Source: Planctomycetota bacterium
GTDB lineage: Bacteria > Planctomycetota > B15-G4 > SIAN01
NCBI GenBank assembly: GCA_031409275.1
Contig: JANNXA010000004.1
Span: forward strand, 1-46,660
DNA length: 46,660 nucleotides
Direction: 5' to 3'
Position numbers and translations under genes: made by a program. The notes under the pieces are model-generated. The model was not told the DNA's origin and searched no databases. It saw only the letters and a program-made list of their open reading frames with translations. This document shows, piece after piece, positions 22,416-46,660 of this stretch. Each line of letters opens with the position of its first letter. Within the stretch, counting starts at the first letter, position 1.

Positions 22416-22485
22416 ACGTTTCCGCCTCGCGCCCGCACACTTGCCCTCACTCGTCCAGCATTTCGCTGGCGACGGAGGGCAATCG

Positions 22486-22785
22486 ATGGAAACCGACGAA
22501 CCGCTCATCACGCTCACCGAAGCGACGAAGCTCAAGTGGCTGCCGCGTCGCCGCAAGGGCGCGCGACCCCACCTGAGCACGATCCTGCGCTGGATCCTCC
22601 ACGGCGTCGGAGGCGTGCGACTGAACGCGTGGAAGGTCGGCAACGCTTGGTGCACGACCGAGCGCAGCCTCCGCGACTTCTTCGCTCGGCTCGCGGCCCA
22701 GCCGGCGTCTTCCCCCGCGCAGGCTTCATCGAGCGACGCTGACCGACGTGCCGAGGAGACACTCGACCGGGCGGGCGTTCGATGA
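22486..22785 (+). CDS. DUF1580-like small DNA-binding protein (excisionase/AlpA-like)
   Basis: LITLTEA...PHLSTILRWILHGVGGVRLNAWKVGNAWCTTERSLRDF. GGAGG RBS before the ATG at 22486. Confidence 0.8.
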   Translation: METDEPLITLTEATKLKWLPRRRKGARPHLSTILRWILHGVGGVRLNAWKVGNAWCTTERSLRDFFARLAAQPASSPAQASSSDADRRAEETLDRAGVR

Positions 22786-22926
22786 CCCGGACTATCGGCA
22801 ACGCCTGCCAGCGTGGGGCACTCGCACGTCCAGGACTGTCGCAGCCCAATCGTGCGCTTTCTGGAGTCCGACGGGCCGCATCGATTGCGCGAGTGATCTC
22901 CGACCGGCTCAGTTCGGGGACACGCA

Positions 22927-26932: not shown

Positions 26933-27271
26933 GCTTCGCAGACGCGGGTTTGACGGCCCGCGCTGAGAGAACTACGTTGGCCGCCGTCGCCCACCTCTCC
27001 GATTCGTCGGACCTCGAACTACCCCTTCGAATCCGGCCGGGCAGACCGGAGAGGCGGGCGACTTGCTCGGCGGGAGCTGGCTGGCCAGCACGATGGAACG
27101 CGCGCCGATTCGAACTTCCAATGTTGGCGCCAGGCGAGGAGTGCCGACGAGAGACTTCGAAGGGCAGTTGGTGAGGCGGCAATACGAATCCCGCCGAGAT
27201 CGCGCGGATTCGTGGAAGCGAACCTCGGTTCCAGGACACTAGCCTCGCTCGCCCCAGAAAGCGGGGAGAGC

Positions 27272-28483: not shown

Positions 28484-30287
28484 CCCGCATGATCGTCGTC
28501 TGCTCCTCGATTCGATGCGGCCGCCCATCGGCTACGGCCTCGACCGCGCGATCGGCACGACGTTCACGCTCGACCTCCTCGCGCTTTTGACCACGCCGCT
28601 CGGGTTCACGCTCTTCGACTTCGAAGACGAGGAGGGTCGTCTTCGTCCGGATCCGATGGCGCTCCTCGAGGCACTTCGCCGGTACGCGGACCGTGTCGCG
28701 ATCTTCTGCCACGCGGGGCAGATCGCCGTCCCGCGCAAGGCGGAGCGACTTTTCGAATTCCTCGAGGGTTCGGTCTTCGAGGTGGCTCCCGAACGCGGAC
28801 TTTTCCACCCGAAAGTCTGGGTGCTCCGGTTCGTGTCGCCGGATCGGCCCGTCCGCTATCGGCTGCTCTGCACGAGCCGCAACCTGACCTTCGACCGGAG
28901 CTGGGACACAATCCTCGCGCTCGATGGCGAGGTCGTAGATCGAAAGCTCGCGTTCGCGGCGAACCACCCGCTCGCGGACTTCGTGAAGGCCCTTCCGGGC
29001 CTCGCCCGCGGTGTCTCCGACGCGGTTCGCCGGGACGTCGACATCGCGCAAGCAGAACTTCGACGGGTCGGGTGGGAGCTCCCCGAAGGCTTCGACGGCG
29101 TCCGTTTCTGGCCGCTCGGCATCGACGGTTACGACGCCTTCCCGTTCGAAGGGCGCGTCGACCGCCTCCTGGTGCTGTCCCCCTTCCTTTCGGACGGTGC
29201 CGTCACGAAGCTCGGAAGTCGCGGCGAAGGGAACGTGCTCGTCTCGAGGCTCGAGACGCTTCAAGCGCTCGATCCGGCGAGCCTCCGTGGATTCGCGCGC
29301 GTCTTCTACCTGAATCCGAGCGCCGAACCCGCCGAGTTGGATGACGACGAGGAGACGCGCTCGGCGATCCGCGGGCTCCACGCGAAGCTCTACGTCGCCG
29401 AGCGCGGTTGGGACGCACACGTCTGGACGGGCTCCGCGAACGCGACCGACGCAGCCTTCGGCGACAGCATCGAGTTCCTCGTGGAGATCGCAGGGAAAAA
29501 GAGCCGCGTCGGCATCGACACGCTCCTCGAACACGCAGACGGACGCACGACGCTCGGCGGCATGCTTCAGGCCTTCATCCCGTCCGAGCAGAGGAAGGAA
29601 GAGGAGGAGCCGGGCGCGGCGAAGATCGAGATGGCGCGGGCCGCGATGGCGCGCGCCAGGCTCGCGGCGCGCGTCGAGTCGATCGAAGGCGAAGCATGCA
29701 CGCTCGTCCTGCGGGTCGCCGATGGGCACGTGCCGAGCCTGCCCGAGGGCGTTCGCGTGTCCTGCTGGCCGATCACGCTCCGGGCCGGCGAACGCACCGT
29801 GGAACGCGGTGCGGACCCGCTCGCCGAGTTCGCGCTGGCCGTCGAGTCTCTCACGTCTTTCTTCGCGTTCGAGGTCGCCGCGCCGGGCGAGGCCGCCCGT
29901 CCGATCACATTCGTGCTCAACGTGCCCCTGGAGGGCGCGCCGGCGGATCGCCCGCAGCGGTTGCTCCGCTCGCTCCTCCGCGACCGTTCGCATGTCATCC
30001 GGTTCCTTCTATTCCTCCTCTCGGAGGATGCCCTGGCCACAAGCGATGGGTCCGTTGGCGGGCCGCGCGCAGAGGGGGCTTCGGGCTCCGCGTCGGCGTT
30101 CTTCGCCGGATCGACGCTCTTCGAGGCGCTCGTCCGCGCGCTAGACCGAAATCCTTCAAGGCTGGATCAAGTCGAGAGAATCGTCCGGGACCTCCGCTCG
30201 AGCCCCGAGCTCGAGGCCTCGCTGCCGGAGGGATTCCTCGGGATCTGGGAGCCAATCTGGGCGGCGCGGCAGAGGTTGAAGCGATGA
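28476..30287 (+). CDS. Phospholipase D superfamily (Tdp1/nuclease-like) protein (ZacB-like)
   Basis: Two HxK motifs: FHPKVW..SRNLT and LHAKLY..TGSANAT. GTTFTLDL at the N-terminus. Overlaps both neighbours. Confidence 0.85.
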   Translation: MLDPHDRRLLLDSMRPPIGYGLDRAIGTTFTLDLLALLTTPLGFTLFDFEDEEGRLRPDPMALLEALRRYADRVAIFCHAGQIAVPRKAERLFEFLEGSVFEVAPERGLFHPKVWVLRFVSPDRPVRYRLLCTSRNLTFDRSWDTILALDGEVVDRKLAFAANHPLADFVKALPGLARGVSDAVRRDVDIAQAELRRVGWELPEGFDGVRFWPLGIDGYDAFPFEGRVDRLLVLSPFLSDGAVTKLGSRGEGNVLVSRLETLQALDPASLRGFARVFYLNPSAEPAELDDDEETRSAIRGLHAKLYVAERGWDAHVWTGSANATDAAFGDSIEFLVEIAGKKSRVGIDTLLEHADGRTTLGGMLQAFIPSEQRKEEEEPGAAKIEMARAAMARARLAARVESIEGEACTLVLRVADGHVPSLPEGVRVSCWPITLRAGERTVERGADPLAEFALAVESLTSFFAFEVAAPGEAARPITFVLNVPLEGAPADRPQRLLRSLLRDRSHVIRFLLFLLSEDALATSDGSVGGPRAEGASGSASAFFAGSTLFEALVRALDRNPSRLDQVERIVRDLRSSPELEASLPEGFLGIWEPIWAARQRLKR

Positions 30288-33200
30288 CGGCGAGCGGGCA
30301 GAAGCCCGACTTCGCGCAGGTCGACGCCGGGCTCAAGGACTTCCAGCGCCGGACTGTCGAGTACGTCTTCGCGCGGCTCTACACGGACCCGGACCGAAGG
30401 CGCCGCTTTCTCATCGCCGACGAAGTCGGGCTCGGTAAGACACTTGTCGCGCGCGGGCTCATCGCCCGCGTCATCACGAAGCTCTGGGACGACGGCGTCG
30501 AGCGCATCGACATCGTCTACATCTGCTCGAACGCAGACATCGCGCGACAGAACATCGCGCGGCTTCGGGTCACGGCGGGGAACGACTTCGTGCTCCCGTC
30601 GCGCATCACGCTCCTGCCGCTGTTCATCCAAGACCTCAAGCGCAACCGGATCAACTTCGTCTCGTTCACGCCGGCGACGTCGTTCGACCTCAAGTCGAGC
30701 ATGGGGACGGTGGAGGAGCGCGTCCTCCTCTACTGGCTCCTCAAGGACGCGTGGAACCTCGAAGGCGCGGGACCGTTGAATGTGTTCCAGGGAAACGCCG
30801 GGGCGGAGCGGTTCCGGGAACGGGTGAAGTCGTGTCGCGACCAGTCCATCGACCCCTCCCTACGCACAGCCTTCGTCGAGGTCGTCGCGATCAGGCAGGA
30901 GCTGCGAGAGCGTTTCGAAGTGCTGCGCGAGCAGTTCGGCCGGCAGCGCATCCACATCCCGAGGGAGGAGACGGACGCGCGCGCGCGGCTCATGGGCGAG
31001 CTGCGGTCGACCCTGGCCCAAACGTGCTTGCGGGCTCTCGAGCCCGACCTCGTCATCCTCGACGAGTTCCAGCGCTTCAAACACCTCCTCGCTGGCGAGG
31101 ACGAGGCAGGGCAGTTAGCGCGGGGTCTCTTCGGATACTCGGAGGGGAACGAGGAAACGCGGGTCCTCCTCCTCTCGGCCACACCGTACAAGATGTACAC
31201 GACACCGGACGAGGCCGGTGATGAGGACCACTACGCCGACTTCCTGCTGACGCTCGAGTTCCTGCTGGACGATCGCGCGGCCCTGCGTGAGTTCCATGGA
31301 CTCGTCGGGGAGTACCGTCGGGCGCTCTACCGGATCGCCGACGAGGGCGCCGGACCGCTCGTGCAGACGAGACGCGAGCTCGAGGCACGACTTCGCCGGG
31401 TGATGGTCCGTACCGAGCGCCTCGCGGTCGCCGAGGATCGGAACGGGATGCTGACGGAGTTCTCGAACCGGCGTCCGGCACTCGAGGCCAGCGACCTGGA
31501 GGACTACGTCGCGCTGCAGCGGGTGGCGCGCGTGCTCGGTCATTCGGACACGATCGAGTACTGGAAGTCGGCACCCTACCTCCTGAACTTCATGGACCAG
31601 TATCAGCTCAAGGAGGATCTCGAGGTCGCGCAGGATGCAAGCGAGGAACTGCCTGCGCTCGTGGACGCACTTGCAAGCGGTGGCACCGCTCTCCTGCCGT
31701 TCCGAGACGTCGAAACGTACGCGAGGATCGATCCGGCGAACTCGAAGCTCCGCTTGCTTTTCGAGGACACGCTCGATCGCGGCGTCTGGCGGCTCCTGTG
31801 GATCCCGCCGTCGCTCCTCTATTACGAGCCGGCGGGACCGTTCTCGGACCCCACGCTTCGCGATGTCACGAAGAGGCTGATCTTTTCGTCCTGGCGCGTG
31901 GTTCCGAAAGTGATCGCGACGCTCTGCAGCTACGAGGCGGAGCGCCTGATGTTCCGGTCGCTCGAGGAGAAGACGGAGAACACGGCCGACGCTCGCGAGC
32001 GCAGAAAGCCGCTCCTGCGGTTCGCGCGGGACGAGGCGCGCCTGACGGGGCTGCCGATCCTCTCGATGCTCTATCCGTCGGTCGCGCTCGCCGCGGAATG
32101 CGATCCGCTCGCGCTCTGCCAAGGACTGCGTCCGCCGCTGAAGATCGTCCTCGCTAACGCCATCGCGCGCGTGGCGGCGCTACTCGCACGCTTGCCCGCA
32201 GAACCTAAGGGAACCGAAGACGAGAGCTGGTACTGGGCGGCACCTGTTCTCCTCGACCTGGCGCGCGACCGAGAGTCGACGCGTGCGTGGCTGTCACAAG
32301 AGAGGATTCATACGGTCTGGACGGGAGACGTCGAGCAGGACCCGGATGCCATCGATACGGCTTTCGCGGCGCACGTTGAGCAACTGCGCGCCGTCGCGGA
32401 CGGAAAGGTCACGCTGGGCGCGCGGCCGGCGGACCTCGCAGAGGTTCTCGCGCGCGCCGCGATCGCGGCGCCAGCGGTCTCTGCGCTACGTGCCTTGTCC
32501 CGGACGCAGTGCGGCCCCGGGCCGTTTCCTTCGCAAGCTGTGCGCAACGGGGCCGCGCGGATCGCGTGGTCGTTCGTGTCGCTCTTCAACCTCCCGGAGG
32601 TCACAGCGCTCCTGCGAGGGATGAACCGCGACGAGCCGTATTGGCGGCGGGTCCTCGACTACTGCGTCGATGGGTGCTTGCAGTCCGTGCTTGACGAGTA
32701 CGCGCACGTGCTGCAGGAAGCGCTCGGCCTGCTTGATCGCCAGGACGGCGCCGCCGCCACCATCGCGGAAGTGATCGCCGGGGCGGTCACGCTCCGAACG
32801 GCGTCTCTGTCCGTAAGCGACGTGACCGTGGACCCGGAGAAGAAAACGTTCGCGAACGAGCCGAAGCGTATGCGTGCCCGTTTCGCCGTCCGGTTCGGCG
32901 AGGAAGCTGTCGAGGGTGGCGGAGACGTGAGGACCCGCGCAGACCAGACCCGGGCGGCCTTCAACTCACCGTTCTGGCCATTCGTGCTCGCGTCCACATC
33001 GATCGGCCAAGAGGGGCTCGACTTCCACTTGTACTGCCACGCGATCGTCCACTGGAACTTGCCCTCGAACCCCGTGGACCTCGAACAGCGAGAAGGCCGC
33101 GTGCACCGCTACAAGGGCCATGCCGTGCGCAAAAACCTCGCGCTCCGGCACGGCGCGACCGTGCTCGCCTCACGGGCTCCGGACCCGTGGTCCGCCCTGT

Positions 33201-33508
33201 TCGACGCAGGGAGGAGCGACCATTCCGGAACCGACATCGTTCCCTTCTGGGTCTACCCCGTTCCGGGAGGCGCCCGCATCGAGCGCCACGTCCCCGCCAT
33301 CCCACTCAGCGCAGACCTCGATCGCCTCATCGCTCTGCGCCGTGCGCTCGTTCTCTACCGCATGGTCTTCGGCCAAGCCCGGCAGGAGGACCTGCTCAGC
33401 TACCTGCAGAGCCGCCTGCCAGCCGACCGCCTGGCCGAACTTCTGACGGAGCTGCGGATTGATCTGTCTCCCCCCGAGTCCCACAACGTGCGAGATGTCC
33501 CGCGATAG
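30284..33508 (+). CDS. SF2 (SNF2-like) helicase, 1074 aa (ZacC-like)
   Basis: Motifs ADEVGLGKT, DEFQ, LSATP, FNSPFWP, STSIGQEGLDFH and EQREGRVHR. ATGA overlap with the PLD gene at 30284. Confidence 0.9.
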   Translation: MTASGQKPDFAQVDAGLKDFQRRTVEYVFARLYTDPDRRRRFLIADEVGLGKTLVARGLIARVITKLWDDGVERIDIVYICSNADIARQNIARLRVTAGNDFVLPSRITLLPLFIQDLKRNRINFVSFTPATSFDLKSSMGTVEERVLLYWLLKDAWNLEGAGPLNVFQGNAGAERFRERVKSCRDQSIDPSLRTAFVEVVAIRQELRERFEVLREQFGRQRIHIPREETDARARLMGELRSTLAQTCLRALEPDLVILDEFQRFKHLLAGEDEAGQLARGLFGYSEGNEETRVLLLSATPYKMYTTPDEAGDEDHYADFLLTLEFLLDDRAALREFHGLVGEYRRALYRIADEGAGPLVQTRRELEARLRRVMVRTERLAVAEDRNGMLTEFSNRRPALEASDLEDYVALQRVARVLGHSDTIEYWKSAPYLLNFMDQYQLKEDLEVAQDASEELPALVDALASGGTALLPFRDVETYARIDPANSKLRLLFEDTLDRGVWRLLWIPPSLLYYEPAGPFSDPTLRDVTKRLIFSSWRVVPKVIATLCSYEAERLMFRSLEEKTENTADARERRKPLLRFARDEARLTGLPILSMLYPSVALAAECDPLALCQGLRPPLKIVLANAIARVAALLARLPAEPKGTEDESWYWAAPVLLDLARDRESTRAWLSQERIHTVWTGDVEQDPDAIDTAFAAHVEQLRAVADGKVTLGARPADLAEVLARAAIAAPAVSALRALSRTQCGPGPFPSQAVRNGAARIAWSFVSLFNLPEVTALLRGMNRDEPYWRRVLDYCVDGCLQSVLDEYAHVLQEALGLLDRQDGAAATIAEVIAGAVTLRTASLSVSDVTVDPEKKTFANEPKRMRARFAVRFGEEAVEGGGDVRTRADQTRAAFNSPFWPFVLASTSIGQEGLDFHLYCHAIVHWNLPSNPVDLEQREGRVHRYKGHAVRKNLALRHGATVLASRAPDPWSALFDAGRSDHSGTDIVPFWVYPVPGGARIERHVPAIPLSADLDRLIALRRALVLYRMVFGQARQEDLLSYLQSRLPADRLAELLTELRIDLSPPESHNVRDVPR

Positions 33509-33571: not shown

Positions 33572-36500
33572 TCACCCTCGAATCTCCACACACACACCGT
33601 GCAGCGGCAGGTGGATCCAGCGCATCGCCACCGCTCGCCCTGTCGCGCGCTCGAGCGCCTCGGCGTAGGCGGCGAGCTGCGCGCCATATGAAGCCGCGGT
33701 CACGAGCGCCTCATCGAGCGAGCCGCCGAGGCACTTGTGGTCCAGCAGCACGAGCCCCTCGCGCGTCTCGAGGACGAGGTCGGTGAACCCGTGCAACTCG
33801 CTGCCGTCAGCGAGTCGGTGTCGCAGCGGCCACTCGCGTCGCCAAGTGGCGCCGGGCCAGCGGCGGCCGATCCACTCGCGCAGCGCGGTCCCGGCGGCGG
33901 CGAGCGCTTCGGCCCGAAGCGCGCCTTCGACCGCGAACGCCTGGAGCAACCGCGCCGCCATCGCCACCCGCTCGACATCAGCAAGGTCCTCGCCATCGGC
34001 CGCGAAGAAGGCGTGGCAAGCGTTGCCAAGCGCGGCTGTGGCTTCGCAGGTCGGGACGGAGGCATCGACACCGATCCGTTCCGGAGTGCCGAGCGCGCCA
34101 CTCCCCAAGAAGCTCGACGGCGTGACGATCGCCGGCGGGAAGTCTCGCAGGCCGCGCGTGATGTAGCCCATACCCGACTCGCTCGGCGCCGGCGTTCCCG
34201 CGGCCATCACCGTCGCGCGGACGCGCGCTTCTATCCGGCGCCCCGCCCACGTCGCGACGCCGTCGTCGCCCGGCTCCGCGAGCGTCGACACGCCGGCAGC
34301 GTTCTCCAGGATCGCGAGCCCTCCGGTCAACAGTTCGCCGGGCTTGCTCGAGAACACGAGGAGGTCGCGCGCTCGCGTCCAGCCGACGTAGAGGAGTCGC
34401 AGCCGTTCGCTCGTCGAACGCTTCTCGACTCGCGCGTGCTCGGCGCCAGCGCTGACGGCCTGATGCAAGGCCGAGTTGCTCCCACTGCTCCGCGGCGCCC
34501 AGCCGCCGGACGAGAACGTCATGTACGGATCGGGCCAGTAGCGGAGCCAACGGCCGCCGAGCGGATCGTCGAGCGAGAACGCCGCCCGATCGCTCTCCAC
34601 ATGGAGGCCGAACGCGCTCGGATCGCGGCCCTCGTCGAGTCCGAAGAGCACGGTCACCGGCCACTCGAGCCCCTTGGCGCGATGCAACGTGCAGACCGTG
34701 ACCGCATCCTGGCCGGCCGGAGTGGCCTGCTCGTCGCGGTCGTCGCCCGACCCGGAGTCGGCGAGCGATTCGACGTGAGCAACCAGTCCCGCGACCGTGG
34801 GAGTCGCGCGCTCGGACGCACAGAGGTCGGCGTAGCGCACCGCGCGCGCGCGCAGCTGATCGAGGTTCGCGAGCCGCTGCGCTTCGGCGCCCCAGCGAAG
34901 GCAGAGCTCGCGCGCGCCGACCGCCTCGACGGCGGCGTCGAAGGCCGCGAGTAGTCCGGCGGACGGATTCGCCTCGCGCGCCGCCGCGATGCGCACGACC
35001 TCGGCGAGATCGACGAACGGACGGCCCTGCGCGTCGAGCAGCTGGCCGAGCCACGCGTCGGGATCGTGCGGCAGGCTGGCGAGCCGGCCGAGCTCCGCCG
35101 CCGCGAGCGTGTCGCGGCCATCGACCCAGAGGCGCAACGCCGAGATCACGACACGGGCCTCCGGCGTCGCGACGAGGCCCGACCGCCCGAGCACCGCGGG
35201 AACGCTCTGCGCTTCGAGCGCCGCCGCCACCGCGCGAGCGCCGGCATTCGTCGGGCAGAGGACGGCGAGGTCGGCGGGACGGGGGCTGCGCGCGACGCCG
35301 GTGACGAGGTCGCGAACCCTCACCTTCGCATCGCGCAGGAGTTCGCTCACGGCGGTCGCCAGCGCGCCGGCGAGTTCCGCCTTCCGGCGGCCCGCCAGCC
35401 GCCACACCTCCACCACCGGCCCGAGAGCATCGGGATCCTGCGTCCTTGGAGCTGGTCGCAGTCGCACGCGCGCCTCGGGGATCCCGTGCGCCGCGAACGC
35501 CGGCGCGAAGACGTCGGAGGTGAGGCGCACGAGCTCGGCGCGGCTGCGCCACGACTCCGCGAGCGTCTCGAGCGCCGCGGCACCGGGCTGCACCTCGATC
35601 GCCGCGACCGCGGCGTCCATCAGCGCCGGATCGGTGCCGCGGAATCCGAAGATCGCCTGCTTTTGGTCACCGACCCAGACGCTCCGCGGCGCGAGCTTGG
35701 CCAGCGCGAGGAAGAGTTCGAGCTGCAGCGGGCTCGTGTCCTGGAATTCGTCGACGAGGACGAGATCGACTTGCTCGGCGAGGATCTCGCGCACGTGCGT
35801 CCGTCCGAGCAGGTCGAGCGCGAGCCGCTCCTGGTCCTCGAAGTCGATCAGCCCCCACTCGAGCTTGTGGAGGCGGTACGTCTCGAGCGCCCGCGCGGCG
35901 AGCTCGAAGACGCCGGCGATCGCGGCGCGAAGGTCGGAGCGGAACTGCGGATGGCGATCGTGCGCGCTCGCGGCGGCGCGTACGCGGTCGAAGAGGTCGC
36001 GCGATTTCACGGCCGGCTCGGCTTCGGCGAGGCGCACCCACTCCAGCCACGCGATCGTGCCGTCGCGACGCAGCGACACGAGAGCGCGTTCGCAGAGGAC
36101 GCGCACGGCTTCCGTCTTCTTCGTCGCGTCGAGCGACCCGCTCCCCGCGAACTCCGCCAGCGCCTCGCTCAACGCGCACGCGATCGCGTCGCCATCGACC
36201 TCCGCCGCCGGCAGATACGCGAGCAGCGTCTCCACGCTCCGCGCCGCAGCGGCGCGCAGCGCGGCGGCGTCGAGCCGATTCGAACGCGCCTGCCGGACGA
36301 TCTCGCGCACGTGGTCGCGCCAGTCGAGGCCCGGCATCCGCTCCTCGAGGTCGAGGAGGTCGCTTGCGGAATCGATGACGCTCGCCAGGGCGCGCTCGAA
36401 CGCAGCGTGAGCCGCATCCTCCTCGAGTGTGCGCAGGTCGGCGGGAAGCCCGAGCTCGAATGCGAACTCGCTCACCAGCCCAGAGCAGACCGCGTGCACC

Positions 36501-36736
36501 GTGCCGATGCGCGCCGAAGCGAGCCGTTGCGCGAGGCCGACGTGCCCGTGCTCGAGCAGCCGCGCGCGCACGCGCTCGCGCAGCTCCGCCGCGGCCTTCT
36601 TCGTAAACGTCGTCGCGATCACCGCCTCCGGACGGACCGGGCAATCGGCGCGCGTGAGCGCGCGCTCGAGCTCGTCGACGAGGCGATGCGTCTTGCCGCT
36701 GCCGGCACTCGCCGAGATGACGTGAATCGCGTTCAT
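33572..36736 (-). CDS. UvrD-type helicase with C-terminal RecB-family nuclease (AddA-like), 1054 aa
   Basis: Motifs ASAGSGKT, TFTKKAA, DEFQD, VGDQKQAIFGFRG, TLHRAKGLEW and LYVGWTRA. Nuclease motifs GFTDL..LDHK..QLAAY. ATG at 36736. Confidence 0.9.
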   Translation of the reverse strand: MNAIHVISASAGSGKTHRLVDELERALTRADCPVRPEAVIATTFTKKAAAELRERVRARLLEHGHVGLAQRLASARIGTVHAVCSGLVSEFAFELGLPADLRTLEEDAAHAAFERALASVIDSASDLLDLEERMPGLDWRDHVREIVRQARSNRLDAAALRAAAARSVETLLAYLPAAEVDGDAIACALSEALAEFAGSGSLDATKKTEAVRVLCERALVSLRRDGTIAWLEWVRLAEAEPAVKSRDLFDRVRAAASAHDRHPQFRSDLRAAIAGVFELAARALETYRLHKLEWGLIDFEDQERLALDLLGRTHVREILAEQVDLVLVDEFQDTSPLQLELFLALAKLAPRSVWVGDQKQAIFGFRGTDPALMDAAVAAIEVQPGAAALETLAESWRSRAELVRLTSDVFAPAFAAHGIPEARVRLRPAPRTQDPDALGPVVEVWRLAGRRKAELAGALATAVSELLRDAKVRVRDLVTGVARSPRPADLAVLCPTNAGARAVAAALEAQSVPAVLGRSGLVATPEARVVISALRLWVDGRDTLAAAELGRLASLPHDPDAWLGQLLDAQGRPFVDLAEVVRIAAAREANPSAGLLAAFDAAVEAVGARELCLRWGAEAQRLANLDQLRARAVRYADLCASERATPTVAGLVAHVESLADSGSGDDRDEQATPAGQDAVTVCTLHRAKGLEWPVTVLFGLDEGRDPSAFGLHVESDRAAFSLDDPLGGRWLRYWPDPYMTFSSGGWAPRSSGSNSALHQAVSAGAEHARVEKRSTSERLRLLYVGWTRARDLLVFSSKPGELLTGGLAILENAAGVSTLAEPGDDGVATWAGRRIEARVRATVMAAGTPAPSESGMGYITRGLRDFPPAIVTPSSFLGSGALGTPERIGVDASVPTCEATAALGNACHAFFAADGEDLADVERVAMAARLLQAFAVEGALRAEALAAAGTALREWIGRRWPGATWRREWPLRHRLADGSELHGFTDLVLETREGLVLLDHKCLGGSLDEALVTAASYGAQLAAYAEALERATGRAVAMRWIHLPLHGVCVEIRG

Positions 36737-39339
36737 TCGCCGGCTCCGGCGAACGAGCGACCGCAGAGCGAGCCGAAGGAGCAGAACCCGCAGGGCGGCG
36801 CCAGGACGATTTCGTCGTCGACCACCTTCGAGTCGCGGGTGACGGGATCGTTCTCGGTCGCGACCCCGAGCGCCTCGACGCTCCCCGACTGCAGCGTCGC
36901 CCAGCGCCTCGAGTGCGTCGCCTCGAGCCGTCGCCACGTCGGCTCGGGCCCATCGCCGGCCACCGGCTCGGCTCCCGGAAAGTGCGTCGGCGAGGTCGTG
37001 AGCAGCCGCTGCGCGCTCATGATCAGGTAGGCGACCGGCGGGAATTCACCACCTTCGCGGCTGAGGAACGAGTAGGCGGCGAGCTGCAGCGCCGTGCCGT
37101 TCGCGAGGCTGTTCCGGCGGTACGACGCGCCACCCCACTTAAGGTCGACCACGCGCGTCGGCGACCCGATCAGCAAGTCGGGCGTCCCCTCGAACGCCGT
37201 CCCGAACGCGCGGCCCTGCCTCGCCTGCTCGCTCGCCACCACGCTCGTGCCCGTCGCGCGCAGCAGCACCGCGACCATCGCGGCGCTCTTCACCAGCGCG
37301 CGCCGCGCCTGCGCGCGCAGCGTCTCCGCGCCCGGGATCCAGAGCACCGCCGCGAGCCGCGGCGCCTCGCGGTCGAAGAGCGCCGCCGCGCGCGCCTCAG
37401 CCTCCTCGGGTGGCGGCGCGGCGGTGGCGAAGAGCCGCTCGATTAGCTCGTGCAGCAGGTTCCCGAGCAGCTGAGGATTGCTCGCCTCGCTCACGTGCGG
37501 CGGCTCCGCTTCGCGCAGCTTCCCCGGATAGTCGAGCGTCCACTTGAACGAGCAGCCGAGGAACGACTCGACGCTGCTCGGCGACTCGCGCTCGCGGCGA
37601 GCTATGCGGCCAGCCGTGACGTTCCAGTGGCGGCGTGGCGAGGAGAGCACCAACGCCTCGCGACGCGCGCGCGGCAGCCGGTCGGCGAACGATGGTTTCA
37701 CCAACCGCTGGACGGCGACGTTGCGCTTCTCGCTCGGCGAATCGAGGCGCGCGAGTAGCTCGTCCCAGAGCGGATGGGGATGGAGCAGCTCGCCCAACTC
37801 GTCGCGGCCGGGGCAGACGAGCAGTAGGGAACGGGTCGCGTGCTGCAGCGGCCGCTGCCACCGCTGCGCCTGCGCGGCGGCAAGGCGAGCCAGCGACGGC
37901 AGGTCTACTCCCTGCACGGCGAGCTCGTCGCGCTCCGCGCGCGAAAGCGGGAGCCTTTCGATCGACTCGGGAGCGCGCTGGTCGAACGACCACCAGACGA
38001 CATGCCGCGCCGCGCCCGCGATCGCGCCGGGCCGGCCGACGTGAGCGAGGCCCGCCTGCGCCGCGAACGGCGCGTCCCCCGCCGTCGCAGCGGTTGATTC
38101 GACGAGGAAGCGCTGCAGGAGTGGTGGCGAGAGCTCGGGCAGGCCGCTGCCGCGCAACAGCGCGAGGAACGCACCGCATTGCGCCAGTGCCGCGCGCGCT
38201 GCATTGGGCGCATCGGCCACCGATGCAAGGCGCGCGAGCCAGGTGCGCAGCAGTTCGGTGCGCGCCAGCGCGACGGCCGACGGGAAAGCGCTTCCGCGCG
38301 GGATCTCGGTGCGCCAGAGGAGGCCGAGCCGCGCCTCCACCCGCGCGCGTCGATCGGCCGCTCCGATCTTCGCCAGCCCTTCGGCCAGCGCCGAACGCCA
38401 CCCATCGCTGTCGACCGCCGGCCACTCGCGCAGCGCCTTGCGCAGCGGATAGGCCACCTCGGCAGGAACGAGCGAAGGCCGGAGCGACAGCAACTCGAAC
38501 GCGCGCTGCGGATCCTGGGGTCGCCATGCCATCTCGAGCACGAGCGGCAATAGTTGCAGCAGCGCGCCGTCGGACACCGCGTACGAAGTGCCGAGCGTCG
38601 GCAGGCCATGCCGTCGCAGCGCCCCATCGAGCAGCGGATCGGCGCCGACGACCACCGTCTGCCCGAGAGCGTCGGGGCCGAGTGCGGCGAGCCATGCCGC
38701 GACCTCCTCCGCCGCCTGGAGCGGTCCCGCCGGCCGCAGAAGCACGAGAGAGCCGTCGCCCTGCGGGTCGAACCCGGCCGCGCGAGCGTGCGCCAGGTCC
38801 CCTTCCGCCGACGCGACCGTGAGCGGCGCCGACTCGATGCGCGTCCCGCGGCGGGCGAGTCCATCGAACAGCCGTCGCCAGAGGAGCTCGAACTCCTCGA
38901 CGGGCGCGAGCAGCCGCACTTCGTCGACGTGCGCGCTGCGGCGCCCGAGCACCGCCGCAAGCGCGACGAGCCGGTCGGGCAGGCCCGGCGCCGCCGTGCG
39001 CACCACTTCGCCGAGCTCGCGCAATCGCGGCGCACGCCCCTCCCCGCGCCACCCAGCCATCGCCAAATGGTCGCGCCACTCAAGCAGCCGCCGCGCGCTT
39101 CCCAACGGGTCCATCCTCGCCGACGCGCTCCAGAATCCGGGCGTCGCCACGACGGCCGGAACCAGCAGCGCGGCTCGCTCACTCGCGCTCAATCTAGGCG
39201 CGGGCAACCCCAGCGCCGTCTCGAGTACCTGGGCCAACCGTTCCGCCCCAATCCAGTCTTCGCCCGCGGACGCCTCGCGACCACGAAGCGGCCCCGGCCA
39301 AGAGCCGGCCGAGAAGTCAGGGTCGAAGACGATGCGCAA
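36733..39339 (-). CDS. PD-(D/E)XK nuclease with degenerate helicase-like N-terminus and four-Cys Fe-S staple (AddB-like)
   Basis: SPSSVESFLGCSFKW, GTPDLL, VDLK, QLAAY and CGFCSFGSLC. 4-bp overlap with the AddA-like gene. Confidence 0.85.
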   Translation of the reverse strand: MRIVFDPDFSAGSWPGPLRGREASAGEDWIGAERLAQVLETALGLPAPRLSASERAALLVPAVVATPGFWSASARMDPLGSARRLLEWRDHLAMAGWRGEGRAPRLRELGEVVRTAAPGLPDRLVALAAVLGRRSAHVDEVRLLAPVEEFELLWRRLFDGLARRGTRIESAPLTVASAEGDLAHARAAGFDPQGDGSLVLLRPAGPLQAAEEVAAWLAALGPDALGQTVVVGADPLLDGALRRHGLPTLGTSYAVSDGALLQLLPLVLEMAWRPQDPQRAFELLSLRPSLVPAEVAYPLRKALREWPAVDSDGWRSALAEGLAKIGAADRRARVEARLGLLWRTEIPRGSAFPSAVALARTELLRTWLARLASVADAPNAARAALAQCGAFLALLRGSGLPELSPPLLQRFLVESTAATAGDAPFAAQAGLAHVGRPGAIAGAARHVVWWSFDQRAPESIERLPLSRAERDELAVQGVDLPSLARLAAAQAQRWQRPLQHATRSLLLVCPGRDELGELLHPHPLWDELLARLDSPSEKRNVAVQRLVKPSFADRLPRARREALVLSSPRRHWNVTAGRIARRERESPSSVESFLGCSFKWTLDYPGKLREAEPPHVSEASNPQLLGNLLHELIERLFATAAPPPEEAEARAAALFDREAPRLAAVLWIPGAETLRAQARRALVKSAAMVAVLLRATGTSVVASEQARQGRAFGTAFEGTPDLLIGSPTRVVDLKWGGASYRRNSLANGTALQLAAYSFLSREGGEFPPVAYLIMSAQRLLTTSPTHFPGAEPVAGDGPEPTWRRLEATHSRRWATLQSGSVEALGVATENDPVTRDSKVVDDEIVLAPPCGFCSFGSLCGRSFAGAGE

Positions 39340-39518
39340 CGGTCAGCTCCGAACGCGCGTTGATCACGCGAGTATGCGGTGGAATCCGAACGGCCGCCCC
39401 TGAACCGCCTTGTCGCGTCCGACTACGTGTTTGAATCAACCACTCGATCGCAGACCGATTCGGGCAAGACTGGTTACGCGCAAAGCGACGAGACGAGGAA
39501 TCGGTCGGCTATCAGCAC

Positions 39519-42500
39519 CTACGCCACGACCTCAACGAACTCCGCGACGACCCGCACCTGTCCCTCGTCGTCGCACGTCAATGTGATCGCCTTGAACGAC
39601 TTGTTTGCCGGTTTGAGCATGACCTCAATGTGCCGCCAGGCGCCGTCCTCGGCGGCGATCTTGGTGCTCTCGTAGCGCTTCACGGTGAAGCGCTCGTTCG
39701 TCTCGGGGTCGGCGGCATCGCGCAGCGCGACGAGCACGACCTTGCCCTGGCGGGTACCGGCGAGCTGCGAGGCGAAGAGGCAATGAGCCCCGTCGGGGAT
39801 GATCGGCTCCATCGACTTGCCGACCACTTGAGCGACGAACATCCCGGGCTGCAGCTTGCGCTTGGCGTCGATCTCGACCCATTCGTCTGCGAGCTCCTCG
39901 AGCGCCTGCGGCGAACCGAACCCGCCGGCAGCCGCCTTGAGGGGGATCAGGGGAACACACGTCACGAACCGTTCGCCGGCCTTCGGCGTCACAACTCGTA
40001 GCGCTCGACGCGCGGTCGGTTCGCCGCCTCGCTGAGCACGATCGAACCAGTCGTGGTCGGCGGCGACCCGCGCCTTGAGCCCGCCGTCGCCGAGGTAGCC
40101 GGCGAGCTTGCGGAAGTGGCGCGTCATCGCGTCGGGCTCGTCGAGTTCGACGACGGTGATCTCTAGGACCTCCCAGTCGTGGCTGCGGAGCCAGCCGCGG
40201 ATGCGCTGGTCGCGGTCGCGCGTTTCGGCGTTGCCGTGCAGGTGGCCGCTCAGGCCGTCGAGGTAGATGCTGATCTGCACCGGATCCCCGTCGCGCTCGC
40301 TGCGATAGATCACGTCGGGGGTCGTCGAGCCGATGGCTCGGTCGAGCAGGATCTGTTCGCCGCGAGTGCCTTCGGGAAAGCCTGCCGCGAGCAGCATGTG
40401 CCGGAGCTTTTGTTCGCACTCGTTGACCGGATGCGCGCCCGATCGGGCCTCGCCGACTGGCAGCGGCGACGGGATCTCGTGATCGAGTTGGAGCGTTCTT
40501 CCCCAGGCCTCGAGACGGTCGAGGGCGACGGTGCGATCGAGCTTCGAGTGATAGAAACTGTTGCGGAACGTCTGCAGGCAGTCGATGCAGGATGTGGCGC
40601 AGGCGGCGGGGCACTTCTCGACGACCTCATGCGCGGCCTGGACGATCTCGCCGAACCGCTCGAGGATCTGGTCGAGGAGCCCGGAACCGCCCGGCATCGG
40701 GTCCCAGAGCAGGGTGTCGACCTCTTCGCGATCGACGTGGCCGATCACGAGGAGCTGCAGGTCCTCCATGTCCATGTCGAGGACCTGCGTCGCGGCGATG
40801 CGCAGCGCCTCGAGGACGCTGTAGGCGATCGTGGCGTCGGCGCACTTCGGCAACGAGAGAACATCGGCCACGACGTCGGCGTAGAAGCCGACTGAGTCCT
40901 GCTTCAGACCGCAACGCTCCTCGTGCTTGGTCTTGAAGTCCAACCGCTGGCGCTCGGACGAGAGCGGCGAGACGCTCTGGCCGCAGACGGTGCAGACGGG
41001 GTAGCCCAAGCGATCCGCGCGGTCGGCGTTCTCGACCGTGGCGGTCGCGCCGACGTTCACGAGCCGCAGGCGGACGCCGCGCCGGTGCTGCAGAACCTGC
41101 TCGCCCCAGCGGTACTCCTTGCCCCCGTTGTGCTGGTCGCGCTCGAGGCCGTAGATCGCGACGCCCATCTGGAAACGCAACTCCTCCTCGTCGGAGATGT
41201 GCGACTGGTGGACCAGGTCGACGTCGCAGACCGAGATCGCGGTCAGCGCGGTGCTCCCCAGCGTGCTCGCCGCGGCTCCGACCGGGGTCGGTTTCACCGC
41301 TTGGCGCTCGGCTGACACCTCGTAGGTCGGCTCCTCGTTGCGCTCCCGGTCGACGTCACGATGGAAGCGACGAGCGACGAAGCGGTGGCCGTTCGCATAG
41401 ATCAGGTTCCCCGGGACGTACTCGCGGAGCGCGACGCTCGGCGGGCGCGGCAGGGCGAACTCCATCGCGCCGGTCCGCCAGAACGGGATGTCGGCGGTGC
41501 CGAGGATCGAGCCGACCTCGAGGCCGTAGCCGGGGAGGAAACCCTCGGCTGCGAGGACGCCGAACGTGTTTGTGTCCTCGTAGCCCTCCGCCTCGCTGCG
41601 CTGGCGGCGGGTCGCCCCTTTCAGCTTCTTGATGATCTGATCGCAGCGCCGGAACAAGGCGTCGTCTTCGGGTTCGAGCGTGCCCTGCTTCGCCCGATCC
41701 TGGTTCAGCCGCTCGATCTGCCGCAGCGCCCAGTGGAGCCGAGCCGCGAGTCGGCGCTCGACCTCCTGCAGGCCGCCGACGAAGCCGTCCACGTAGCCGG
41801 CGATCGCCGCGTCCTCGATCACCAGCCGATCGCTGTCGGGCCATCCTTGGTGGAAGACCTGCCTCACGTAGGCGAGGAGATCATCGCGGTTGTCCGCGAT
41901 CAGCCGCTCGAGCGTCGCGAAGTCGAACGGCGCCGTGCGGACGCGGCCGCCGTCGAAGAGGTAGGACGAGACCTGCTTCGGCAAGCTGGCTGACAGCGTG
42001 TCGCCGATCGTGGCGCGCGTCGGCTCCGCGCGAGCCGGATCACGCGCGTACTGATGCAAGCGGGTGATCATCGTCGCGTGGACGTGCTTCGCGACCATCT
42101 GCTCGTTGCGCAGATTGAAGGCCGGCGGATCGACGCGGCCGGAGAGCAGCTTCAGCGGATCGGTGAAGTAGGCGCGGTCGTGCGACACCGGCCGGCAGTA
42201 GGTCAGGTTGACGGCCATGCGGTGGCGGCGGCCGGCTCGCCCGGCGCGCTGCCAGTAGTTCGCCGGCAGCGGCGGCACGTTGCGCATCAGCACGGAGTCG
42301 AGCTGCCCGATGTCGACGCCGAGCTCGAGCGTCGGCGTGCAGACGAACGCATTCACCGCGTCGGAGTCGCCCTTGAAGAGGTTCTCCAGCCGCTCCCGCT
42401 CGTCGTGCGGGACCATCGCCGTGTGCTCCTCGGGGCGGAGCATCACGTAGCCCTCGTCGAGCAGCTGGAGGTCGTAGTTGTCGGGATCCTCCTGCAGGTA

Positions 42501-45449
42501 CTCGAGCTGGCCGTCGCAACGCCAAGCGGGGCAGCGTCCATGCGGCGTCCGGCGCGGAGATCGCCGGCGACAGGTCCGACAGCGCCACACGCCGTGATTC
42601 GCATGCAACCGCAGCACGTCGGCATCGACTTGGTAGACGCCGCTGACGTTCGGCAGCGCGCGCCCCTTCTCACCGGTCAGGACCACCGGCTTCAGGAACT
42701 CGGTTTCGCAGAGCATCTTGAACAGCGACTCGAGCACGCCGGGAATGTCCTCGGTCTCGACTCCCCACTTCCGCGCGATCTGCCGGAACGTCGTATCGCC
42801 GCGCTCGGAGAGCCACTGCGCAACCCACTCCGGGCGATCGTGTCCGTCGCGCGAGAGCTTCGTCCCCTTGGGCGCACCGGCCTGCGGCAGGTAGCCCTGC
42901 TGGATCTCGAGATCGCCCTCGCCCCAGAACTTCGAGAAGACGTGGTGCTCGGCGTCGTGGAGGACGCGCGTGCGACGGAGGTAGTCGAGCAGGTTCGCGA
43001 CGCCGTCGCGCAGTTCGTCGGGCGGCAGCCCGAACCGCCGCGAATGCTCGACGATCCACGGCAGCCCGGCGTGAAGCCCGTCGTACTCGACCTTCATCCG
43101 CCCCCAAGGTTCGAGGCCGAGCGACTGGCGCGACGAGAGCGTCACCTCGCGCAGCACCTGGATCCGCAGGAACTTCCGCCGCTCCCGCTCGTGCTCGCCG
43201 CCGCTGCCTTCCTTGCGCGCGACCTGCCAGACCTCGGGAATCAGCGCACGCGAGAGCGCCTCGTCCCGGTCGAGCGCCTGATCGACGCGAAGCGCCAGAT
43301 CGCCGACGGACAGAGCCCCCGACGCGATCCCCTCCGCCATCAGCGCGCGCAGGCGGAAGCGCCGCGCGTGGTCCTTCATCCAGCCGGCCTGGAACGCCGC
43401 GTCCTGGCGGTTGTCGCAGAAGACGAGCAGGCGGCGCCGCTCGGCATGCTGGACCATGTCCTGCGCGAGGACGTGCACGTCGGCGACGTTGGTGGCGCGC
43501 ACCGGGCGCGCGGGCTCGCGCCAGCGCGTGCCCAGTCGTCGCAGGTTCGTCCCGCAGGAGACGCAACTCGTGAGCAGCCCCGGATGATCCTCGCTCTGAC
43601 GAATCGCATGCAGTGCGACCAACGGCCCGACGAGTCCGCAATGGAGGCAGCGCGGCCCCGCCTCAGCATGCGCCGTCCCGCAATGGCGGCAGAGGTGGAG
43701 CAACGCCATTCGACGGTGGTCTTCGAGGTCGTCGTCGTCGCCCTCCCCGACGATCCGATCGACGAACAGGGCACGCCGGCCGCCCTTCGCCTGCTCGAGC
43801 GGTTCCCAGAAGGTCGAGTTTCCGTCCGCGCGCCCGCCCCCGGGCCTCTTACCGGTGAACTCGAAGCTCTCGAGGAGGGCGACGAAGTAGTGCTGGCCGC
43901 AGGTCGAGCATGTCGTGACCGGGAAGTGGGCGTGCTTCTCCCCACCGGCCTCCGCCTCGACCTCGTCCTCCGCCGCCAGCCAGAGTCGCGGACCGGCCGA
44001 GGCCCGGGGGAAGCTCACGACCGCGCCGCTGATGCCGCGGATGAAGCCGTGGACGACCGGCCGGACCAGCGGCCGGCCGTCCCTGCGCGCCGCCGCCCCG
44101 AGCGTGAGCCACGCGAGGAGCTCGGCCTCGCTCACGGCACGCCCGACCGCCTTCGAGAGTTCGAGTGCCAGCTCCGCGAGAGGACGCGGCGACACCAAAA
44201 GCTCGCTCATCCGGAACAGGAGTTCGTTGTGCGACAGCGCGTCGTGCAGGCGCTCCTTCCAGTCTCCTGCCGCGAGCGCCTCGCCCGCGAGGTCGCGATA
44301 GGCAGCACGGAGTGCCTTGCCGTCACCGGCGTCGTCCTCGACCGCCGTAACGCACGCACCGAGGCAGGAGGACGCCTCCTTCCCGGGCGCTGCAGGCAGG
44401 CGGCGTGGCGTCGCCCATGTCGCCGCTTCGTACGCCTCGCCGACGGTCACAACGTCGCCTGCCGGCACGCCGAAGAAGCGCGAGGCGAACTTGCGTGCCG
44501 CGTCGGGATCGTTGCGATCGACGATCGTCGCTGAGGTCGCCACGCAGACCGTGTCCTGCAAACCGCGGCCGCAGAAGCTACGGAGCCGGCGGATCAAGCA
44601 CGCTGTCTCGGCTCCCTGCGCGCCGGTGAACGTATGCGCCTCGTCGAAAACGAGGAAGTCGAGTCGCGCGCCGGCAAAGAGCTCGACATCGCGCTGGCGG
44701 GTGAGCAGCAGCTCGAGCTGCTTCACGTTGGTGAGCAGGATGCGGGGCTGCTTGCCGGGCGTCCGCATGATCTCGCGAGAGCAGACCTCTTCCGGCGGGA
44801 AGACCGTCTCGCTGCGCTTCTCACGACGGACGCGCTCAAGCGTCGCCTCGTAGTCCGCGCGCGAGGCCCCGGCAGGAAGGCGGATGCCCGCGACATCGCG
44901 CTCGAACTCAGGCGTCTTGCCGACGTACATGCCGAACGGGATGCCCGTGCCGGCCAGCAACCCGCGCAGTCGCTGGAGTTGGTCCTCGGCCAGCGCGTTC
45001 ATCGGGTAGACGATCACCGCGCAGATGCCCGACGGCGCCGCTGCGTCGCGCATCTCAAGGCACTTGCTCACGATCGGGTAGAGGAAGCACTCCGACTTGC
45101 CGGAGCCGGTGCCTGTCGAGACCAGCGTCGTCCGGCCCGATCGGATCGCGCGGATCGCCTCTTCCTGATGGCCGTAGACATGCGTGATGGCAGCCGGGAT
45201 CCGCTGACGCATGTGGGGGTGGAAGACCTTCTCGCGCACCAGATCATCGACCGCCACCCCCTGCCGAAACGGGCGCGACAGGCTCACGTACGGCCCCTTC
45301 AGCAGCGGCGAACTGCGCGTCTCGTCGAGCGAGAGCAGCGTCCGCATCTGCGCGAGCAGTCGCTCGTCGGCGAACGGATAGGCCGTGAGTTGGTAGCGCA
45401 GGAAGCTGCGGACGACCTTCTCGCTGTAGGCGATAGGGTTCAGAGCCAT
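39519..45449 (-). CDS. Giant DEAH-box helicase with DUF1998, DUF559/Vsr-like nuclease and C-terminal S24 peptidase-like domain (DruE/DrmAB-like)
   Basis: TGTGSGKS, YPMNAL, DEAH, SAT, TLELGVDIG and QRAGRAGR, plus many CxxC pairs. DUF1998 GGSG..CPAAC..SCIDCL. Nuclease TPDV..YLDG..H. S24 AAG/GKSMEP/TVKRY. Confidence 0.9.
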   Translation of the reverse strand: MALNPIAYSEKVVRSFLRYQLTAYPFADERLLAQMRTLLSLDETRSSPLLKGPYVSLSRPFRQGVAVDDLVREKVFHPHMRQRIPAAITHVYGHQEEAIRAIRSGRTTLVSTGTGSGKSECFLYPIVSKCLEMRDAAAPSGICAVIVYPMNALAEDQLQRLRGLLAGTGIPFGMYVGKTPEFERDVAGIRLPAGASRADYEATLERVRREKRSETVFPPEEVCSREIMRTPGKQPRILLTNVKQLELLLTRQRDVELFAGARLDFLVFDEAHTFTGAQGAETACLIRRLRSFCGRGLQDTVCVATSATIVDRNDPDAARKFASRFFGVPAGDVVTVGEAYEAATWATPRRLPAAPGKEASSCLGACVTAVEDDAGDGKALRAAYRDLAGEALAAGDWKERLHDALSHNELLFRMSELLVSPRPLAELALELSKAVGRAVSEAELLAWLTLGAAARRDGRPLVRPVVHGFIRGISGAVVSFPRASAGPRLWLAAEDEVEAEAGGEKHAHFPVTTCSTCGQHYFVALLESFEFTGKRPGGGRADGNSTFWEPLEQAKGGRRALFVDRIVGEGDDDDLEDHRRMALLHLCRHCGTAHAEAGPRCLHCGLVGPLVALHAIRQSEDHPGLLTSCVSCGTNLRRLGTRWREPARPVRATNVADVHVLAQDMVQHAERRRLLVFCDNRQDAAFQAGWMKDHARRFRLRALMAEGIASGALSVGDLALRVDQALDRDEALSRALIPEVWQVARKEGSGGEHERERRKFLRIQVLREVTLSSRQSLGLEPWGRMKVEYDGLHAGLPWIVEHSRRFGLPPDELRDGVANLLDYLRRTRVLHDAEHHVFSKFWGEGDLEIQQGYLPQAGAPKGTKLSRDGHDRPEWVAQWLSERGDTTFRQIARKWGVETEDIPGVLESLFKMLCETEFLKPVVLTGEKGRALPNVSGVYQVDADVLRLHANHGVWRCRTCRRRSPRRTPHGRCPAWRCDGQLEYLQEDPDNYDLQLLDEGYVMLRPEEHTAMVPHDERERLENLFKGDSDAVNAFVCTPTLELGVDIGQLDSVLMRNVPPLPANYWQRAGRAGRRHRMAVNLTYCRPVSHDRAYFTDPLKLLSGRVDPPAFNLRNEQMVAKHVHATMITRLHQYARDPARAEPTRATIGDTLSASLPKQVSSYLFDGGRVRTAPFDFATLERLIADNRDDLLAYVRQVFHQGWPDSDRLVIEDAAIAGYVDGFVGGLQEVERRLAARLHWALRQIERLNQDRAKQGTLEPEDDALFRRCDQIIKKLKGATRRQRSEAEGYEDTNTFGVLAAEGFLPGYGLEVGSILGTADIPFWRTGAMEFALPRPPSVALREYVPGNLIYANGHRFVARRFHRDVDRERNEEPTYEVSAERQAVKPTPVGAAASTLGSTALTAISVCDVDLVHQSHISDEEELRFQMGVAIYGLERDQHNGGKEYRWGEQVLQHRRGVRLRLVNVGATATVENADRADRLGYPVCTVCGQSVSPLSSERQRLDFKTKHEERCGLKQDSVGFYADVVADVLSLPKCADATIAYSVLEALRIAATQVLDMDMEDLQLLVIGHVDREEVDTLLWDPMPGGSGLLDQILERFGEIVQAAHEVVEKCPAACATSCIDCLQTFRNSFYHSKLDRTVALDRLEAWGRTLQLDHEIPSPLPVGEARSGAHPVNECEQKLRHMLLAAGFPEGTRGEQILLDRAIGSTTPDVIYRSERDGDPVQISIYLDGLSGHLHGNAETRDRDQRIRGWLRSHDWEVLEITVVELDEPDAMTRHFRKLAGYLGDGGLKARVAADHDWFDRAQRGGEPTARRALRVVTPKAGERFVTCVPLIPLKAAAGGFGSPQALEELADEWVEIDAKRKLQPGMFVAQVVGKSMEPIIPDGAHCLFASQLAGTRQGKVVLVALRDAADPETNERFTVKRYESTKIAAEDGAWRHIEVMLKPANKSFKAITLTCDDEGQVRVVAEFVEVVA

Positions 45450-45452
45450 TGC

Positions 45453-46528
45453 CTACGACTCTCCCGTCGCCGTGGGACTCGCCTGGGGACCCCGATCGCC
45501 GCTCTCAACATCCGGCGATTCGTCCATGGCGTCTTCAATTGCGCGACGCCTCGCCGACATCTTGAATCCCTGCGGGACGGGCTTGAACGGATCATCGTCG
45601 CGCGGCCAATTCTTCGCGCGCGACTGGAAACGTCGCAGTCCGTCGACGTTGAGCCGAGCAACTACTCCAAAGTCATTCTCACCGCCCTTGATTCGGCACA
45701 CGTCGCGCTCAAAGTCCTTCTTGGCGGGGCAGCGCACACGGCTGTCCCCGTAAAGCGCGTTGTTCACGACCGCTACGTATGCATGAATGTCGAGCGCAGC
45801 GGACTCAACCAACGGCGAGAACGTCTCAAGGTCCTTGTTCCAGGATGGAACCATGAGGCAGTCGACCTGCCCTTGGAACGCGGCCCGGAATCCGATGTGC
45901 TGAAGCTCCGAGCAGATCAGCACGCCGAAATCGAACCCGTGATGGCGGTAGACCCGAAGGTGGTTTTCAGGTCTTGGATCATCCTGCAACGCCCGCGATG
46001 ACCACAGCGTTCTTCCGTACGACCGAAGCAGTTCCTCCTCTTCCGCCGGAGCTGGCGCGGACTTCGGCTGCCGGATGAGCACTGCAGCATCGAATCCAAG
46101 CCGATCATCAGTCAGCGCAAGGACGGCCTCGTTCAGAAGTCGGCCGTTCCCAAAGTGCCGATACTCGACGCCGGCCACAACGCTGATTCTCGCGCCGAGC
46201 AGGCGATTGACGACACTCTCGACCCACCTCTGCGGCAACGCGAGTTCTGGCAGGAGCACGTAATCGGGCCTGGGTACTGTCCGTAGAATCGCATTCACGA
46301 GTCTCGCGACGCGCACGTAGCGGGCAGTGCTCAGGTCCGGGGCATTCGCCGCCGACGCTCTCCACGATCCGACGTCGACTCGGAGGTTCGCGACGAGAAT
46401 GCGCGGCGGATGCCCCTTCTGCGGCCGGCCGATAACCGCCAACCGCGGTCCAACATCGGTCGGTTCCTCGTCCGCCACGTCCGCCAGCGTGACAGATCTC
46501 GTCCAGATTCCGCGGAATGCTCGAGCTA
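45453..46528 (-). pseudogene. Carbon-nitrogen hydrolase (nitrilase) domain, likely the C-terminal remnant of an RT-nitrilase (UG1/DRT1-like) gene interrupted by IS630
   Basis: Triad motifs LPEL, QPK and LICSEL. LVESAALDIHAY, YGDSRVR.P, RIKGG and FKPVP.GF resemble the RT-fused nitrilase clade. The ORF's ATG (46535) lies inside the IS end. Confidence 0.7.
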
Positions 46529-46660
46529 GTGTCATGAGGTAGAAGTTCGTTGAACAATGTCACGGAGGCGTCGTACTCCTCTACAAGGAGCCGACGATGC
46601 CACGAGGACGCCCCCGCGCTGACCTGAAGCTGACGCCCGAGGAGCGCGCGACGCTCCAGG
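46527..46660 (+). mobile_element. IS630-family insertion sequence, left end (truncated by window)
   Basis: CTAG/TA target-like site followed by the IS630-like end TAGTGTCATGAGGTAGAAGTTCGT, then an RBS and a transposase start. Confidence 0.75.
46597..46660 (+). CDS. IS630 transposase N-terminus (partial)
   Basis: AAGGAG RBS, then MPRGRPRADLKLTPEERATLQ..., a typical IS630 transposase start. Confidence 0.72.
   Translation, partial: MPRGRPRADLKLTPEERATLQ

Follow-up and report, generated by a model that had tools for sequence, protein, structure and literature searches.

ARMADA Type I, the closest described system, combines in one operon a YprA-family helicase (ArmC), a BrxHII-like SNF2 helicase and a PglX-like methyltransferase, and its ArmC continues through DUF1998 into a C-terminal Vsr nuclease (Bell et al., bioRxiv 10.1101/2025.09.15.676423). 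The experimental tests in the available text of that paper concern Type II only. Druantia DruE and DISARM DrmAB are likewise YprA-family defense helicases, with partners and nuclease ends that differ from those of ArmC. The means by which restriction systems spare their own chromosome while it is being repaired are known for few enzymes. Peptidase family S24 (PF00717), with LexA, lambda CI and UmuD, forms the second point of comparison, and to our knowledge every self-cleaving S24 domain controls repressors or UmuD. RecA contacts LexA at F111, L113, V153 and D150–E152, with equivalents in UmuD and CI (PMC9926225), and restriction alleviation is required when unmethylated host sites arise through repair (PMC4231737).

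ARMADA Type I identity and operon

The window, that is, the whole stretch of 46,660 nucleotides analyzed here, is an entire contig carrying a defense island, and on sequence grounds its 1,976-aa ORF is the ArmC helicase of ARMADA Type I (Table 1). At least three of the five accessions looked up, MBN2437725, MFA5786294 and MBW0181487, appear as the Type I helicase in the available part of Table S1 (bioRxiv 10.1101/2025.09.15.676423); these orthologs are full length, bear an S24 domain, and are 68–70% identical to our ArmC. The YprA helicase, DUF1998 and the Vsr nuclease are shared with the described ArmC, and what differs is the additional S24 domain. The best PADLOC matches of ArmC were to DruE (E 5e-103), a label that reflects the nearest model and not membership because the PADLOC 2.0 matches included no ARMADA model; identity with DruE was rejected as the orthologs are tabulated as ARMADA Type I helicases. 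We likewise rejected ARMADA Type II, as the locus is without ArmD (RelE-GajB helicase). The gene order here equals the reversed order reported for some ARMADA Type I loci.

We compared 80 orthologous loci in GTDB. The genes recurring upstream encode a DrmD/BrxHII-like SNF2 helicase and an Eco57I/IIG-type methyltransferase, found in 32 and 41, respectively, of the 52 loci having at least 9 kb of upstream sequence. In our genome these genes lie on another contig, C8 (armA at 7351–10599 and armB at 2457–7262), which probably joins the window across an insertion sequence (IS): a single RT-nitrilase model is divided between them, with its RT half (10–597 of 907) at the end of C8 and its nitrilase half (610–902) at the end of the window, and both halves adjoin an end of a multicopy IS. 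The RT half lies at 132–2450 of C8 (L087), and the interrupting IS is about 1.16 kb long and could also be polar on armC. The RT-nitrilase was not found in the 80 orthologous loci and is cargo. Across these loci (L001–L080) the slot between armB and armC holds changing cargo, including AbiEi/AbiEii, DarTG, Fic, Septu-like and HEC ATPases, AAA systems and a RecD-like helicase. No conserved gene cluster was found downstream in the 80 loci, and the UvrD gene present here is AddA-like and missing from them.

Table 1. Features of the armC region, in window coordinates
Feature	Position	Strand	Basis
armC, YprA-family helicase-nuclease of ARMADA Type I (by sequence) with C-terminal S24 module, 1976 aa	39519..45449	-	
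SF2 helicase core with CxxC-rich inserts, aa 94 (DEAD) to 1075 (Helicase_C)	42225..45170	-	Pfam and sequence
MZB/DUF1998 zinc domain, aa 1547–1625	40575..40811	-	Pfam PF09369, E 5e-10
Vsr-fold nuclease, aa 1673–1802	40044..40433	-	Fold and conservation
LexA/CI-type S24 autopeptidase module (predicted), aa 1826–1975	39525..39974	-	Pfam, structure comparison
Predicted scissile Ala1841/Gly1842	39924..39929	-	Conservation
Predicted catalytic Ser1879	39813..39815	-	Conservation
Predicted catalytic Lys1924	39678..39680	-	Conservation
Acidic loop D1914–E1919 and Phe1921	39687..39710	-	Offset from catalytic Lys (inferred)
AddB-like and AddA-like pair, downstream of armC, island cargo	33572..39339	-	
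Nitrilase half of RT-nitrilase (UG5/DRT-type) gene, between armB and armC, IS-interrupted	45453..46529	-	
End of multicopy IS, CTAG at junction, 28-bp inverted repeat, breaks contig	46526..46660	.	

Fold and conservation of the C-terminal S24 domain

The motifs quoted for the helicase tail in the original prediction are all in frame in the armC ORF, with TPDVIY at residue 1710, IYLDG at 1728, HLHG at 1736 and WEVLEI at 1759, followed by PLIPL at 1833, AAAGGF at 1839, VVGKSMEP at 1875 and FTVKRY at 1921. The S24 fold expected there was borne out by both Pfam and structure comparison. Peptidase_S24 scored 24.4 bits on the whole of ArmC and 31 bits on its last 166 residues (cut-off 23.3), and in an AlphaFold2 model of the last 333 residues (70-row alignment, pLDDT 76.9) model residues 187–333 resembled lambda CI (8gmu; Z 12.0, rmsd 2.8, 118 aligned) and E. 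coli LexA (7zra; Z 11.3, rmsd 2.9, 120 aligned). Foldseek also matched the domain to LexA (E 2e-5). By sequence, a PDB search with the S24 domain alone found no relative, and an S24 profile gave weak LexA and UmuD matches (E 0.17–1.8).

The segment before the S24 domain had been described as DUF559/Vsr-like, and the Vsr half of that label stood: model residues 32–144 aligned with I-Bth0305I (Z 11.1, rmsd 2.6, 96 aligned) and Vsr (1cw0; Z 8.4, rmsd 2.6, 98 aligned). Pfam DUF559 gave no match in the C-terminal region of ArmC, and the label thus rests on fold. In agreement with the original prediction, Pfam, the model and fold comparison revealed no HTH in the last 333 residues. The S24 domain shares with LexA, lambda CI and UmuD the fold (Z 9.7–12.0), the Ser-Lys dyad, an Ala-Gly site with matching spacing and, as placed by offset, most RecA-contact positions. 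Unlike in the LexA and CI repressors, it is joined to no HTH and follows the Vsr nuclease and a 23-aa variable linker, so that its N-terminal cargo is a 1,840-aa enzyme. With an acidic DPxTG loop, Ala at the position six residues before the catalytic Ser (Ser-6) and 22–28% identity to solved members, the module represents a distinct S24 subfamily.

The residues expected of a self-cleaving domain, namely Ala1841/Gly1842, Ser1879 and Lys1924, are intact and nearly invariant. Among the 120 best full-length matches, query included (67–74% identity, one 66%), Ala1841 was found in 120, Gly1842 in 116, and Ser1879 and Lys1924 in 119 each; D1712, D1731, H1738 and D1747 of the Vsr domain were each conserved in 120/120, and the linker between the two domains was variable. 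Across 10 disjoint ortholog pairs, S24 gave a dN/dS of 0.139, compared with 0.109 in Vsr and 0.283 in the linker. The S24 domain is real and under purifying selection. A chance fusion of a repressor fragment, for which one may point to the few HTH-S24 repressors within the subfamily (2 by Pfam, 4 by BLAST), or an assembly artefact is extremely improbable, and both were ruled out by the dN/dS of 0.14 and by the domain's presence in 119 other full-length orthologs of 66–74% identity. In two runs that are possibly the source of this DNA, single contigs cover 39000–46549 without differences, which serves as an assembly check and not as independent support.

The domain is nevertheless optional. Among 71 loci with a scored Vsr domain, S24 was in frame in 55, in a split ORF in 1, absent from 14 and obscured by a contig end in 1, a sample that favors S24 because it was ranked by similarity to the full query. 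The 14 orthologs without S24 stop 1–14 residues past Vsr and retain no remnant; the enzyme therefore does not need the domain. A tree of 64 helicases, from which short or contig-cut rows were left out, required 8 changes in S24 state, gains and losses counted alike, with at least 6 on well-supported branches.

Distribution of the module among restriction and defense enzymes

A profile search with the S24 module retrieved 2,210 clusters at E ≤ 0.001 and 1,441 at E ≤ 1e-10. Among the best 150 of the 2,210 clusters, 132 domains span all four positions, and 124 of them retain the Ala-Gly bond, Ser and Lys unaltered, several of the exceptions being Cys/Ser/Thr swaps at the cut site. Position by position, the scissile Ala and Gly were each conserved in 131/135 distant clusters, and the catalytic Ser and Lys in 147/148 cluster representatives each. 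Among the closest relatives of the ArmC domain (60–70% identity) are segments that form the tails of Type I HsdR and of Type ISP enzymes. In a Pfam scan of 93 longer representatives, 46 had a second family and 47, mainly fragments, did not. The second families were ISP (11), Schlafen-g3 helicase (6), HNH (6), YprA (5), HsdR (5), and PLD, AlbA, McrC/LlaJI, IIG-type methylase, other SF2 and HTH (2 each) besides Type III (1); 44 of the 46 hosts were thus restriction or defense nucleases, helicases or RM-type methylases. Genome searches added a Type III Res, a Type IV enzyme, DISARM DrmC and DrmMI/ArmB-like methyltransferases (L115, P0237 and P0242).

A tree of 99 modules, again without short or contig-cut rows, required 43 changes of host, in comparison with a minimum of 14. 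Of 301 genomes from the same phylum, 19 carried the module, our genome among them; of 301 searched around a gammaproteobacterial locus, 6 did, counting the central one; and a Bacteroidota-centred search gave 1 match in 11 genomes. Phage records contained no match to the module, and plasmid records contained one, frame-broken. A 287-aa fragment (P0238) carries two tandem S24 modules.

Four EcoEI-type HsdRs (L122, L123, L127 and L128) have the module inside their nuclease domain, at residues ~73–230, where it separates the N-terminal helix from the D/ExK motifs; helix and motifs are contiguous in two aligned insert-free orthologs. A cut at such a module would therefore split the nuclease. By eye, L128 seems to carry Glu at the catalytic Lys position.

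The S24 domain might instead be kept for dimerization or RecA docking, with cleavage incidental or absent, a reading that we regard as quite improbable. It is in line with the fact that double-strand cutting by restriction enzymes often takes two nuclease domains. In LexA, UmuD and CI the C-terminal domains do dimerize (PMC9926225). Dimerization or docking would, however, have no need for the Ser, the Lys and the scissile Ala-Gly together, yet these are among the most conserved columns in many independent hosts.

The full-text literature searched, with subscription papers and bioRxiv supplements outside it, described no S24 fusion to restriction or defense enzymes in the parts available, and PMC12839542, PMC10853773, PMC8569181 and 10.1101/2025.09.30.679545 do not mention the fusion. 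The main text of the ARMADA paper has no mention of S24, LexA, peptidase or protease (bioRxiv 10.1101/2025.09.15.676423), nor do the available portions of its supplementary files mention S24, LexA, peptidase or PF00717. The fusion is already visible in automatic annotations. In the literature covered, the S24 domain is unreported for ARMADA, and the S24-bearing ArmC adds a new form both to ARMADA Type I and to the known uses of S24, with a regulatory mechanism that is potentially new.

A candidate RecA-triggered switch and the island neighbors

Positions equivalent to the RecA contacts were placed by their offset from the catalytic residues. Eight residues before the catalytic Ser (Ser-8), 145 of 148 modules have Phe, and at Lys-3 Tyr or Phe occurs in 138 of 150; the loop before the catalytic Lys contains at least two acidic residues in 138/147. 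In ArmC, the acidic loop D1914–E1919 and Phe1921 appear to stand where LexA, UmuD and CI have the acidic patch and the pocket residue that RecA contacts. The own genome encodes recA, clpX and two LexA-like genes.

The original prediction left open whether cleavage would turn the enzyme on or off, and the comparative evidence leans toward off. Our preferred reading, to which we give just short of an even chance, is that the S24 domain acts as a portable switch, predicted to cleave itself, that turns ArmC off once RecA-ssDNA filaments form on damaged host DNA. RecA-ssDNA would use the conserved Phe/aromatic pocket and the acidic loop to dock on the domain, and Ser1879 and Lys1924 would then cleave Ala1841/Gly1842 in cis. 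The cut would leave a 1,841-aa enzyme with a Leu-Lys-Ala-Ala-Ala end, which might be cleared by ClpXP, or else an S24-mediated dimer would be lost. Restriction would thus drop while repair produces unmethylated host sites, amounting to restriction alleviation built into the enzyme. The direction is favored because the domain is dispensable, because it is inserted within nucleases, and because alleviation is needed during repair.

In LexA-like proteins a ClpXP C-degron adjoins the cut (PMC5742171). A terminal Ala-Ala is necessary, not sufficient, for ClpXP, and the LKAAA end agrees just partly with the consensus of the ClpXP screen (PMC10862746). Ala-Ala precedes the cut in 128/135 clusters; as the LexA-like proteins of the own genome have the same context, it may reflect cleavage geometry and gives no independent evidence for a degron. 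Common to the off switch proposed here and to the ClpXP-dependent alleviation of EcoKI HsdR would be the proteolytic loss of a restriction helicase-nuclease when the chromosome is at risk. EcoKI, whose degron was described as unidentified (PMC4231737), is recognized during translocation, whereas in ArmC the degron would be produced by a dedicated cis-protease that senses RecA filaments. The precedent for an SOS link is weak, since EcoKI alleviation does not depend on LexA cleavage (PMC11109961). Also against an off switch, the methyltransferase hosts gain less obviously during repair, and phages or plasmids that induce RecA filaments could exploit the SOS link.

Were the switch to work in the opposite direction, S24 would restrain the nuclease or helicase, and a RecA-stimulated cut during phage replication would free the active enzyme, as in UmuD. 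The intact catalytic and RecA-contact residues fit this identically, and among the hosts, the Schlafen-type and HNH enzymes might serve as inducible effectors. We nevertheless find it unlikely, as a cut in the internally inserted HsdRs would detach the N-terminal helix of the nuclease, and Type I, Type III and ISP enzymes need to act on incoming DNA ahead of an SOS signal. YprA helicases work on ssDNA, in line with an on switch, but ARMADA II, as tested, protects without abortive infection (bioRxiv 10.1101/2025.09.15.676423).

The Ser-6 pocket position, Leu in LexA, UmuD and CI, is Ala in 125 of 148 modules, and the loop before Lys is longer than in LexA. The first of these differences speaks against the off switch, and both fit self-cleavage with a trigger other than RecA, be it a timer, contact of the enzyme itself with DNA or a different coprotease-like factor; IrvR is reported as a LexA-family exception to RecA control (PMC7101444). 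The Phe at Ser-8, the aromatic residue at Lys-3 and the acidic patch are, however, kept at the RecA-contact offsets, and we judge a trigger other than RecA to be just as unlikely as the on switch.

Returning to the RecA-triggered off switch, its extension to the whole mobile subfamily (the 1,441 clusters at E ≤ 1e-10) is slightly more doubtful than its action on ArmC: the module would be a plug-in SOS sensor carried by ARMADA, by DISARM and by all main classes of restriction enzyme, RecA filaments would cut and destroy the enzyme with no transcription step, and phages and plasmids would have a handle on it. If true, a portable S24 domain would couple DNA-damage signaling with immunity through the proteins themselves, and windows of raised gene transfer would be expected following DNA damage.

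The neighboring AddAB-like enzyme had been proposed as the ssDNA source, and a dedicated role was not supported. The 80 orthologous loci, among them 59 that span at least 3 kb downstream, contain neither subunit, and the AddB-like protein has matches in 2 of 61 genomes, own included. The enzyme is not a system partner; it may generate ssDNA in its own cell. The pair is patchy, with a close second copy absent from the genome, and may be defense cargo and not housekeeping repair.

The island comprises a tRNA-Gly, an integrase, a primase-polymerase, ZacABC, the AddAB-like pair, armC and the nitrilase fragment. A repeat search of 19500–46660 gave nothing exceeding chance. PADLOC matched ZacA, ZacB and ZacC (DUF6361, PLD and SF2 helicase) at 27212–33508 on the plus strand, convergent with the AddAB-like pair, and the tRNA-Gly followed by the tyrosine integrase and the primase-polymerase at 20139–25338 is likely the left end of an integrated element bearing the island.
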